Source of the DNA: a virus
Lineage: Duplodnaviria > Heunggongvirae > Uroviricota > Caudoviricetes
DNA length: 5,347 nucleotides
Strand: one strand, 5' to 3'
Virus record (IMG/VR): IMGVR_UViG_2698536307_000017
Made by a program: the position numbers and the translations under genes. The notes beneath the pieces were generated by a model. That model saw only the letters and a program-made list of their open reading frames with translations, was not told where the DNA came from and made no database searches. Shown piece after piece: positions 2,020 through 3,918 of the stretch. Position 1 is the stretch's first letter; every line of letters begins with the position of its first letter.

Positions 2020-3918
2020 ATGCGCATCTGGAAAAAACGTCGCGAAGGTGAACGCAAGGAAACCGGAAAATACACGTCTGTTGTTGATCTCGCCCGCGCC
2101 AGAGCCAATCAACAGTACACTGAAAATTCAACAGGAAAAATCAGCCCGGTCATTGCTGCCATTCATCGCGAATACAAGCAGACATGGAAAACACTGGATG
2201 ACGAACTGGCCTACGCTCTCTGGCCTAGTGATGTGGATGCCGGAAACATTGACGGCAGCATCCATCGCTGGGCAAAAAAAGAAGTTATCGACAACGACCG
2301 CGAAGACTGGAAGCGTATCTCGGCATCAATGCGCAAACAGCCTGATGCCCTTCGCTACGACCGCCAAACTATTTTTGGCCTTGTCCGTGAGCGTCCGATC
2401 GACATTCACAAAGATCCCGTAGCACTGAACAAATATATCTGCGAATACCTGACGACAAAGGGCGTGTTTGAGAATGAAGAAACAGACCTGGGCACTGTTG
2501 ATGTTCTCCAGTCATCAGAAACACAAACTGATGCAGTGGAAACTGAGGTATCTGATATCCCAAAAAATGAAACCGCGCCGGAAGCTGAACCATCTGTAGA
2601 GCGTGAGGGGCCGTTCTATTTCCTCTTCGCAGATAAGGACGGAGAAAAATACGGTCGCGCAAACAAACTCTCTGGTCTGGATAAGGCACTGGCTGCTGGC
2701 GCCACTGAAATCACAAAAGAAGAATATTTTGCCCGAAAAAATGGCACATACACGGGCTTACCGCAAAATGTAGATACCGCTGAAGATTCAGAACAACCAG
2801 AGCCGATAAAAGTTACCGCTGACGAAGTAAACAAAATTATGCAGGCAGCCAATATCAGCCAGCCTGACGCCGATAAGTTGCTTGCTGCATCACGTGGTGA
2901 ATTTGTTGAAGGGATTAGTGACCCGAATGATCCGAAATGGGTTAAGGGGCTCCAGACCCGCGATTCTGTGAACCAGAACCAGCATGAATCGGAACGGAAC
3001 TACCAAAAAGCGGAACAAAACAGTCCAAATGCGTTACAAAACGAGCCAGAAACGAAACAGCCTGAACCAGTAGCGCAACAGGAAGTGGAAAAAGTCTGCA
3101 CCGCCTGCGGTCAGACCGGCGGCGGCAACTGCCCTGATTGTGGCGCGGTGATGGGCGACGCAACATACCAAGAAACATTCGATGAAGAGTATCAGGTTGA
3201 AGTTCAGGAAGATGATCCGGAGGAAATGGAAGGCGCTGAACATCCACACAAGGAGAACACTGGCGGCAATCAGCATCACAATAGCGATAATGAAACTGGC
3301 GAGACGGCAGATCACCCAATTAAGGTGAACGGTCATCACGAAATCACATCCACCAGCAGGACGTGTGACCATCTAATGATCGACCTTGAAACCATGGGAA
3401 AAAATCCTGATGCCCCGATCATCTCAATAGGTGCAATATTTTTCGATCCGCAAACCGGAGATATGGGACCGGAATTTAGTAAGACTATCGATCTGGAAAC
3501 TGCTGGCGGAGTCATTGATCGGGACACCATTAAATGGTGGCTTAAGCAATCACGCGAAGCGCAATCTGCCATTATGACCGATGAAATCCCGTTAGATGAT
3601 GCACTGTTACAATTGCGAGAATTTATCGACGAAAACTCCGGTGAATTTTTTGTTCAGGTTTGGGGAAATGGAGCCAACTTCGACAACACGATTTTGCGCC
3701 GTTCATACGAACGGCAGGGGATCCCCTGCCCGTGGCGTTACTACAACGATCGCGATGTACGCACAATCGTTGAGCTGGGGAAAGCCATAGACTTCGATGC
3801 CAGAACGGCTATTCCATTCGAAGGTGAGCGCCATAATGCACTTGATGACGCCCGTTACCAGGCAAAATACGTTTCAGTTATCTGGCAAAAACTGATCCCG
3901 AGTCAGGCTGATTCTTAA
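2020..3918 (+). CDS. RecE-like (exonuclease VIII N-terminal-like) protein fused to a C-terminal DEDDh (DnaQ-like) 3'-5' exonuclease domain
   Basis: Long ORF from the track (677 codons from TTG 1885). In-frame start candidates are TTG 1885, TTG 1951 (GGAG 6 nt upstream) and ATG 2020; I prefer ATG 2020 because the translation upstream of it is Cys/Trp-rich and not protein-like. The C-terminal domain (nt 3376..3915) carries all three DEDDh motifs: Exo I D-x-E in MIDLETMG, Exo II GNGANFD (3664..3684), Exo III H-N-A-L-D-D (3832..3849). Upstream are acidic linkers and a Cys4 knuckle C-x2-C-x7-C-x2-C (3097..3141). The segment [28 protein letters not shown] and the Cys cluster match my recollection of the RecE N-terminal region; this is unverified. 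Confidence 0.85.
   Translation: [632 protein letters not shown]

Follow-up and report, generated by a model that had tools for sequence, protein, structure and literature searches.

The DNA analyzed here, a 5,347-nucleotide stretch held as virus record IMGVR_UViG_2698536307_000017 (the window), carries a 5'-truncated copy of the intact form of the Escherichia coli K-12 pseudogene ydfE, whose product joins a partly RecE-like scaffold to a predicted DEDDh 3'-5' exonuclease head. We hold this with good confidence for the reading as a whole, identity and mechanism together. The family is already catalogued, the domain swap is real and the copy itself is ordinary. By megablast, the window corresponds to E. 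coli chromosomes, in which it forms part of a Qin-type cryptic prophage beside rspB/rspA/ynfA, and the locus is a decayed Qin-type prophage between the ends of an insertion sequence IS1 and an IS5-like element.

The open frame runs from 1885 to 3918 on the plus strand. Its ATG at 2020, which the original prediction took as the start of the gene, is internal and encodes Met192 of an 823-residue protein, homology to which begins at position 1935. In the output of the NCBI Prokaryotic Genome Annotation Pipeline (PGAP), 1927-3918 is a pseudogene 'missing N-terminus', and the facing DUF977 gene is flagged in the same way. The full-length family protein has 823 residues; a colinear match over residues 1-823 was not found, and the window holds residues 164-823 only, i.e., a truncated member. 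Similarity to the gene of phage Tritos (gp27) starts at 1935 (breakpoint 1934/1935), which corresponds to codon 163/164, and positions 1885-1934 are antisense DUF977 sequence that is open by chance back to a TTG at 1885. The gene and its parts are given below; residues of the window protein are numbered from window position 1927.

1936-3918, plus strand: 5'-truncated ydfE-family exonuclease gene, residues 164-823 and the stop codon.
1935-1944: deletion junction with 10-bp microhomology GTATCCGGAG, joining the LygF/DUF977 remnant to codon 163/164 (blastn against PhiR42_1).
1939-2460, plus strand: helical middle domain, family residues ~165-340, a module common to RecE-family scaffolds.
2485-2595, plus strand: disordered acidic linker 1, 10 Asp + Glu versus 1 Lys + Arg in 37 residues (composition; AlphaFold2 predicted local distance difference test, pLDDT, <50).
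2599-2751, plus strand: small beta-hairpin and helix domain (pLDDT 93-96), found in a subset of relatives.
2873-3318, plus strand: mosaic block common with Rac recE (RecE residues ~448-592), with a PNDPKWVKG motif, Cys4 knuckle and acidic tail.
3097-3144, plus strand: Cys4 zinc-knuckle candidate, CxxC-x8-CxxC, with putative metal binding.
3145-3354, plus strand: disordered acidic linker 2 (tether), 19 Asp + Glu versus 2 Lys + Arg in 70 residues (composition; pLDDT 30-35).
3358-3906, plus strand: predicted DEDDh (DnaQ-fold) 3'-5' exonuclease domain of the Rv2179c/DexA type (Pfam, phmmer, Foldseek, motifs).
Catalytic codons, plus strand: D486 at 3382-3384, E488 at 3388-3390, D586 at 3682-3684, H636 at 3832-3834 and D641 at 3847-3849.

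The origin of the truncation could be read from a blastn comparison with phage PhiR42_1 (L037, from ECOR13). Window positions 116-1944 matched 7917-9745 of this phage with 99.9% identity, and positions 1935-5226 matched 14356-17647 with 100% identity over 3,292 nt. The two matches overlap by the 10 bp GTATCCGGAG, which points to a deletion of ~4.6 kb between short direct repeats. The undeleted layout in PhiR42_1 is methyltransferase < LygF < O < cII < dicC on the minus strand, followed by dicA > ... ydfD > exonuclease (823 aa) > xis > int on the plus strand. Lost in the deletion were O, cII, dicC, dicA, the genes from dicA through ydfD, and exonuclease codons 1-163, and with them the promoter as well as the replication and immunity regions. 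Among 5426 complete E. coli genomes, 90 carry the junction; strains that have it include ML35 (CP025747) and SCPM-O-B-12142 (CP144928).

The presence of a DEDDh domain in the last ~180 residues, as originally predicted, was borne out by a full-length match to Pfam PF16473 (Rv2179c-like; window 3370-3885, E 1.7e-67, 227 bits versus a cut-off of 27, profile positions 2-177 of 177). The motifs lie where they had been placed (IDLETMG at 3379-3399, GNGANFD at 3664-3684 and HNALDD at 3832-3849), except that Exo III, described as H-x3-D, is H-x4-D (H636...D641) in the pattern conserved across relatives. All five catalytic residues (D486, E488, D586, H636 and D641) are present and were kept in 9 of 11 diverse relatives, so that inactive motifs, the weakness considered beforehand, were not what the alignment showed. 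The proposed structure prediction also agreed: AlphaFold2 gave a confident DnaQ fold for residues 478-660 (pLDDT mostly 75-92), and the top solved Foldseek matches of the head model, at a probability of 1.00, were T4 DexA (8KEL), RNase T, a Cas2-DnaQ domain and Orn. T4 DexA 8KEL was the sole Protein Data Bank (PDB) match by sequence (phmmer, E 6e-8). This phage enzyme (exonuclease A; 8KEL/8KEN) is the best solved relative by both sequence and fold (Foldseek E 2.6e-7, template modeling score 0.63 on the target) and shares the DEDDh residues; however, identity is only ~20%, and DexA is a stand-alone protein of 227 aa with extra loops. The head is thus predicted to remove nucleotides in the 3'-5' direction, and homology suggests DNA as the substrate. 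One DEDDh-headed relative, P0235 (752 aa), has DLK for DLE in Exo I and FAN for FD(N) in Exo II, which suggests that an inactivated head has been retained on its scaffold.

The ~450 residues in front of the head had been described as acidic linkers plus a Cys4 knuckle. Both are there, with the knuckle at 3097-3144, but AlphaFold2 additionally placed, with confidence, a helical domain (residues ~5-178) and a small beta-hairpin/helix domain (225-275) in this region. Models were made of the window product and of family residues 1-450 (mean pLDDT 85), and the full-length layout that they yield comprises an N-terminal alpha/beta domain (1-100, absent in the window), the helical domain (110-340), a disordered acidic linker, the ~45-residue beta-hairpin/helix domain, the RecE-like Cys4 block, a long acidic tether and the DEDDh head. 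The first helices of the helical middle domain adjoin the deleted N-terminal domain. Precomputed Pfam assignments for the full-length protein were PF27430, PF27432 and PF16473, of which PF27430 is the N-terminal domain type of this lineage.

A segment and a Cys cluster resembling RecE had been noted, and the absence of similarity to RecE N-termini had been named as the result that would speak against a RecE-like scaffold. Similarity to K-12 RecE was detected (BLASTP, E 2e-62), and lies in the central part of that protein: RecE residues ~271-602 are shared and correspond to family residues 246-625, whereas the Pfam Exonuc_VIII domain (RecE 2-178) is not. At the DNA level, the block at ~2873-3318 is ~88-90% identical to K-12 recE, with a sharp loss of similarity on both sides (~75-80% identity at the protein level), and it ends at ETGE(T/V)AD. 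RecE similarity stops inside acidic linker 2, ~15 codons short of the first DEDDh strand, and in RecE the equivalent edge precedes the crystallized nuclease domain. RecE (exonuclease VIII of the Rac prophage, b1350) and the ydfE family are further alike in that both genes are located in the early-left operon near xis-int and both proteins have a long N-terminal part followed by a C-terminal nuclease. The nucleases differ, as the ydfE-family head is of the DEDDh 3'-5' type and that of RecE is PD-(D/E)XK 5'-3' (PF12684; RecE 606-866). Neither PF12684/DUF3799, for which RecE itself scores 4e-28, nor PF06630 (Exonuc_VIII) matched the window protein or P0001, and the RecE equivalog model NF007259 of NCBIfam gave 286 bits versus a cut-off of 1269, over model positions 271-602 only. 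By these sequence comparisons, the window protein is set apart from RecE in every membership test save in the central scaffold region. A direct hhalign comparison of the PF27430-type and Exonuc_VIII N-terminal domains had a probability of 20% (E 0.001).

The original prediction envisaged a RecE-like scaffold whose catalytic module had been replaced by one of opposite polarity. To place this in the family, window residues 1-468 were used as a scaffold query against 1.84 billion representative proteins, which returned 191 matches; modules were mapped by phmmer on the best 150 of these 191, and samples were checked with Pfam. The N-terminal domain of scaffold relatives was either of the YdfE type or RecE Exonuc_VIII (PF06630). 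A homologous middle domain was present in all mapped relatives, and the DKLL/Cys4 block was optional, the Cys4 pattern being found in 15 of the 150 representatives and always in the form C-x2-C-G-x6-C-P-D-C. Three heads occurred on the scaffold: DEDDh, RecE-type PD-(D/E)XK (PF12684), or a third conserved module of ~270 residues. The swap of catalytic modules is therefore real at the level of the family, since the same scaffold bears either nuclease head and the RecE-like block ends no more than ~15 codons from the first catalytic strand in both proteins. Even the chimera as imagined exists: P0126 (805 aa) consists of Rac RecE residues 1-~605 and a DEDDh domain, and the isolated phage vB_EcoS-813R8 encodes an 813-aa protein with Exonuc_VIII and Rv2179c-like domains. 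P0137 has the combination opposite to that of P0126. For the lineage of the window, however, this description does not hold, because its N-terminal domain is of the other type (PF27430) and is deleted in the window. The DEDDh and PD-(D/E)XK heads have been exchanged, in one direction or the other, by in-frame mosaic recombination within the tether.

Two further scaffold proteins or groups deserve mention. P0171 (703 aa) has no nuclease domain; a RecT domain (PF03837, E 1e-42) instead follows Rac RecE residues 1-~527 in the same frame, so that the protein represents either a natural fusion by deletion or yet another type of head. The third head occupies the C-terminal ~270 aa of P0151, P0164, P0177, P0188, P0205, P0212, P0215, P0243, P0253 and P0269. 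It has an invariant KKSLTDA...LGF.AD pattern and is labeled 'exonuclease' in PHROGs (phrog_2489) without a visible basis; no Pfam match was detected, and a PDB profile search gave nothing at E <0.5. A Rad52-like annealase was considered for this module and rejected, as hhalign to the Rad52-type protein of mEpX2 had a probability of 0.2% and neither Pfam nor PDB lent support. The module probably corresponds to the class that Zheng et al. (Genome Res 2025, PMC12315714) termed 'RecE-2', whose members have no recognizable nuclease.

Nor is the architecture obscure. The PHROG 2082 profile (phrog_2082, 'exonuclease') spans all 823 positions, the best protein cluster of the 823-aa family has 23,183 member sequences, the intact ydfE form is of this kind, and DNA of the head domain was found in 4069 of the 5426 complete E. 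coli genomes (~75%), in up to seven copies. NCBI names these proteins '3'-5' exoribonuclease domain-containing protein' or 'exonuclease', and the label 'exodeoxyribonuclease VIII' in many phage records is wrong for the head. K-12 ydfE (Qin, b1577) belongs to the same family and occupies the same site beside rspB. K-12 holds residues 1-256, 99% identical, and was cut by IS2E, whereas the window copy was cut by the 4.6-kb 5' deletion; the two are complementary remnants of one gene at one locus. The homolog of the exonuclease gene in PPompW prophages of enterohemorrhagic E. coli (Stx2a phage Stx2_14040, L008 3586-6053) has, according to its annotation, a frameshift from the loss of 4 bp, another independent inactivation in the family. 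The belief that no protein of this architecture had been characterized was upheld, as the literature on ydfE, on Rv2179c with phage and on this architecture yielded no functional study.

With regard to function, the xis-proximal position of the gene was confirmed: xis follows at 3991 and then int. In the viable phages Tritos, PhiR42_1 and HannyBb, xis-int are likewise preceded immediately by the exonuclease gene (dicA > ... dicF-dicB-ydfD-exo-xis-int); dicB-ydfD are deleted in the window and present in Tritos, PhiR42_1 and K-12. Among the phage records examined, RecE-type heads were followed by an overlapping recT (K-12 Rac, 666R9), whereas DEDDh heads were followed directly by xis with no annealase in the operon (Tritos, 813R8, PPompW, PhiR42_1), and no annealase gene lies between the exonuclease gene and xis in the window. 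Thus, the DEDDh-headed proteins are not to be read as a RecE of reversed polarity paired with RecT. Two stand-alone DEDDh proteins, epsilon34 gp34 and mEpX2 gp32, are 56-58% identical to the head and are also encoded in the early-left operon, with the module order Rad52-type annealase, single-stranded DNA-binding protein, DEDDh and Abc2; they differ in having ~182 aa and no scaffold, and the ydfE family has no annealase neighbor. The location of these relatives inside recombination modules, together with the fusion of the scaffold to RecT in P0171, links the head to recombination. DnaQ-like nucleases are one nuclease type of lambdoid recombination modules (PMC12315714).

In the mechanism we propose, induction would lead to transcription of the intact gene from the leftward promoter that DicA represses, the DEDDh site (D486, E488, D586, H636 and D641) would trim DNA 3' ends by two-metal hydrolysis, and the RecE-type scaffold would bring the head to the partner or DNA structure that is recognized by the N-terminal 600 residues of RecE. 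As a tentative role we put forward the processing of DNA ends during phage recombination or replication, about which we are close to evenly divided. The copy in the window is itself probably non-functional.

Several considerations weigh against this interpretation. The polarity and the DNA substrate of the family are predicted by homology alone, and Rv2179c, the namesake of the Pfam family, is an RNase. Annealase-based recombination would not be expected to use a 3'-5' nuclease, and an annealase gene is absent from Qin-type operons. With respect to the window copy, its 1,992-nt frame is still intact while adjacent genes are frameshifted or stopped, and it may be served by read-through or by a non-consensus promoter.

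The foremost alternative role for the intact family would be that of a prophage defense or exclusion nuclease, similar to HREX, attacking modified or competing phage DNA. We consider it unlikely, although it has points in its favor. E. coli genomes contain the gene very frequently, and several copies in one genome are common; however, it lies in a DicA-repressed lytic operon and should be silent in the lysogen, the dicB operon being a repressed lytic operon. The int-proximal end of the operon and the lack of an annealase partner also fit defense, as sporadic DnaQ-type genes near int were placed outside recombination modules (PMC12315714). Furthermore, the head is in the same DexA/Rv2179c-like clade as EcD ('HREX'), an E. 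coli DexA homolog (GenBank HAK9828821.1) for which Kang et al. (NAR 2025, PMC12153337) reported degradation of T4 DNA containing 5-hydroxymethylcytosine (5hmC) and, on expression from a plasmid, protection of the cells. We rebuilt the EcD sequence from the published primers, which gave a matching 189-aa protein on IMG/VR contigs with Ala at position 78 as published and a 3' end that departs from the reverse primer at a single base. With the head it shares 38% identity (E 2e-37), a level at which anti-T4 activity is not transferable; EcD is stand-alone, has no RecE-type scaffold and is not an ortholog, and its case is one of plasmid expression of a single distant homolog. DexA W152 and D169 were reported to recognize 5hmC (PMC12153337), but W152 aligns to a Tyr in WRYYNDRD of the head, and the phmmer alignment stops before D169. 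PADLOC gave only a weak generic DEDDh (Cas-associated) match (E 1e-5) and assigned no defense system. The primer-matching EcD sequence occurred on the viral or prophage contigs L013, L018, L028, L029, L031 and L034 of IMG/VR; EcD, reported as a 'bacterial' defense exonuclease, may itself be phage-borne.

It is also conceivable, though improbable, that the truncated frame is still expressed, from the ATG at 2020 (a 632-aa product) or the TTG at 1885, and has been retained as a partial or scaffold-less DEDDh protein that helps the host, which may occur by degradation of incoming phage DNA. The 1,992-nt frame and all five catalytic residues are intact while the genes at 310-731 and 897-1079 are broken, and the 189-aa EcD, with its 38% identity to the head, was reported to act against T4 from a plasmid (PMC12153337). 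However, the 100% identity to PhiR42_1 over 3.3 kb implies that the deletion is recent; with such near-identity to a live phage there was little time for decay, and the open frame therefore says nothing on selection. Compared with the Tritos gene, 22 codon differences were found over 660 codons, and the ratio of non-synonymous to synonymous substitution rates (dN/dS) of 0.19, the DEDDh head having 4 synonymous changes and not one that is non-synonymous, is uninformative on selection of the truncated copy as the differences are too few and all predate the deletion. The Shine-Dalgarno-like context at 2020 is weak, and no promoter-like site was seen: 0 sigma-70-like sites were detected on either strand of 1600-4300, versus 3.1 +/- 1.6 in shuffled sequence. 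The junction, moreover, occurs in merely 90 of 5426 genomes, and the truncation cuts into the helical domain. A count of zero sigma-70-like sites in 1600-4300 also fits a region that is normally read through from a distant antiterminated promoter.

Less probable still is a head that acts on RNA or oligonucleotides, engaged in RNA 3'-end trimming, nanoRNA clearance or breakdown of nucleotide second messengers. The Pfam family is named after the Mycobacterium tuberculosis exoribonuclease Rv2179c, the NCBI names speak of a '3'-5' exoribonuclease', and good Foldseek matches include the Orn/REXO2 nanoRNases and Cap18. Against this, the nearest solved relative by sequence and fold is a DNase, T4 DexA, and there was no Rv2179c entry among PDB sequence matches at E <=0.01. 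A DNA enzyme and annealase fusions have the same scaffold, and close stand-alone relatives are located in DNA recombination modules. Finally, a chance frame or annotation artifact, to which only the fortuitous extension of 1885-1934 through antisense DUF977 could be credited, is practically dismissed by the Pfam match at E 1.7e-67, the >8000 homologs, the full-length copies in isolated phages and, again, a dN/dS of 0.19 versus Tritos with no non-synonymous change in the head.

The remaining features of the window are as follows.

1-115: IS1 end.
310-731, minus strand: decayed hypothetical gene, frameshifted (PGAP).
897-1079, minus strand: DUF7167 gene with an internal stop (PGAP).
1342-1698, minus strand: small class I S-adenosylmethionine-dependent methyltransferase, 118 aa, intact.
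1695-1944, minus strand: LygF/DUF977 remnant without its N-terminus, on the other side of the deletion (Pfam PF06163, E 6e-15; PGAP pseudogene).
3991-4242, plus strand: excisionase of the DUF1233 type, directly downstream of the exonuclease gene (Pfam PF06806, E 1.6e-31; annotation).
4277-5226, plus strand: tyrosine integrase, Qin-type, adjoining rspB in related genomes (Pfam Arm-DNA-bind_2 and Phage_integrase).

The frameshift at 310-731 and the internal stop at 897-1079 are further signs of decay of the prophage remnant. There is a 4-bp overlap between the methyltransferase gene and the LygF/DUF977 remnant, and the gene is found with 100% conservation in PhiR42_1; its Pfam methyltransferase matches were marginal only (E 3.5e-4). 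The LygF/DUF977 remnant spans just profile positions 62-134 of PF06163, and LygF of PhiR42_1 is intact (140 aa). The integrase gene, which measures 1281 nt when complete (related genome L001), is broken at 5226/5227 by an IS5-like element, so the open reading frame listed at 4262-5335 carries a foreign C-terminus. Positions 5227-5347 are the end of a multicopy element that adjoins ISKpn26 in a related genome (L002); 2384 of 5426 genomes carry it, with copies on both chromosomes and plasmids. An Rfam search of the window returned zero families at gathering score.

The proper annotation of the window gene is 'ydfE-family exonuclease, 5'-truncated pseudogene', and no new enzyme is to be claimed from it. 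The implications concern the family. Phage proteins that are named 'exodeoxyribonuclease VIII' and carry a DEDDh head are distinct from RecE, being of opposite predicted polarity and lacking a RecT partner. Biochemistry on this putative nuclease, which ~75% of complete E. coli genomes carry, would be reasonable if not urgent. The RecE N-terminal region emerges as a mobile scaffold, compatible with two or more different nuclease heads. This region was described as 'of unknown function', yet it enhances linear-linear recombination (2023 review, PMC11611040), and its tolerance of different heads makes head swaps and pull-downs an obvious route to its function. It is a speculative thought, and rather doubtful, that the RecE-type scaffold is a general delivery platform that brings interchangeable DNA-processing heads to one cellular target, the heads observed on it being the 5'-3' and 3'-5' nucleases, RecT and the third ~270-aa module. 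If true, the DEDDh-headed YdfE found in ~3/4 of E. coli genomes would have a role distinct from RecET recombination, for example 3'-end trimming that steers host RecBCD- or RecA-dependent repair in annealase-less phages, or destruction of rival phage DNA, and the family would provide an experimental handle on the N-terminal 600 residues of RecE.

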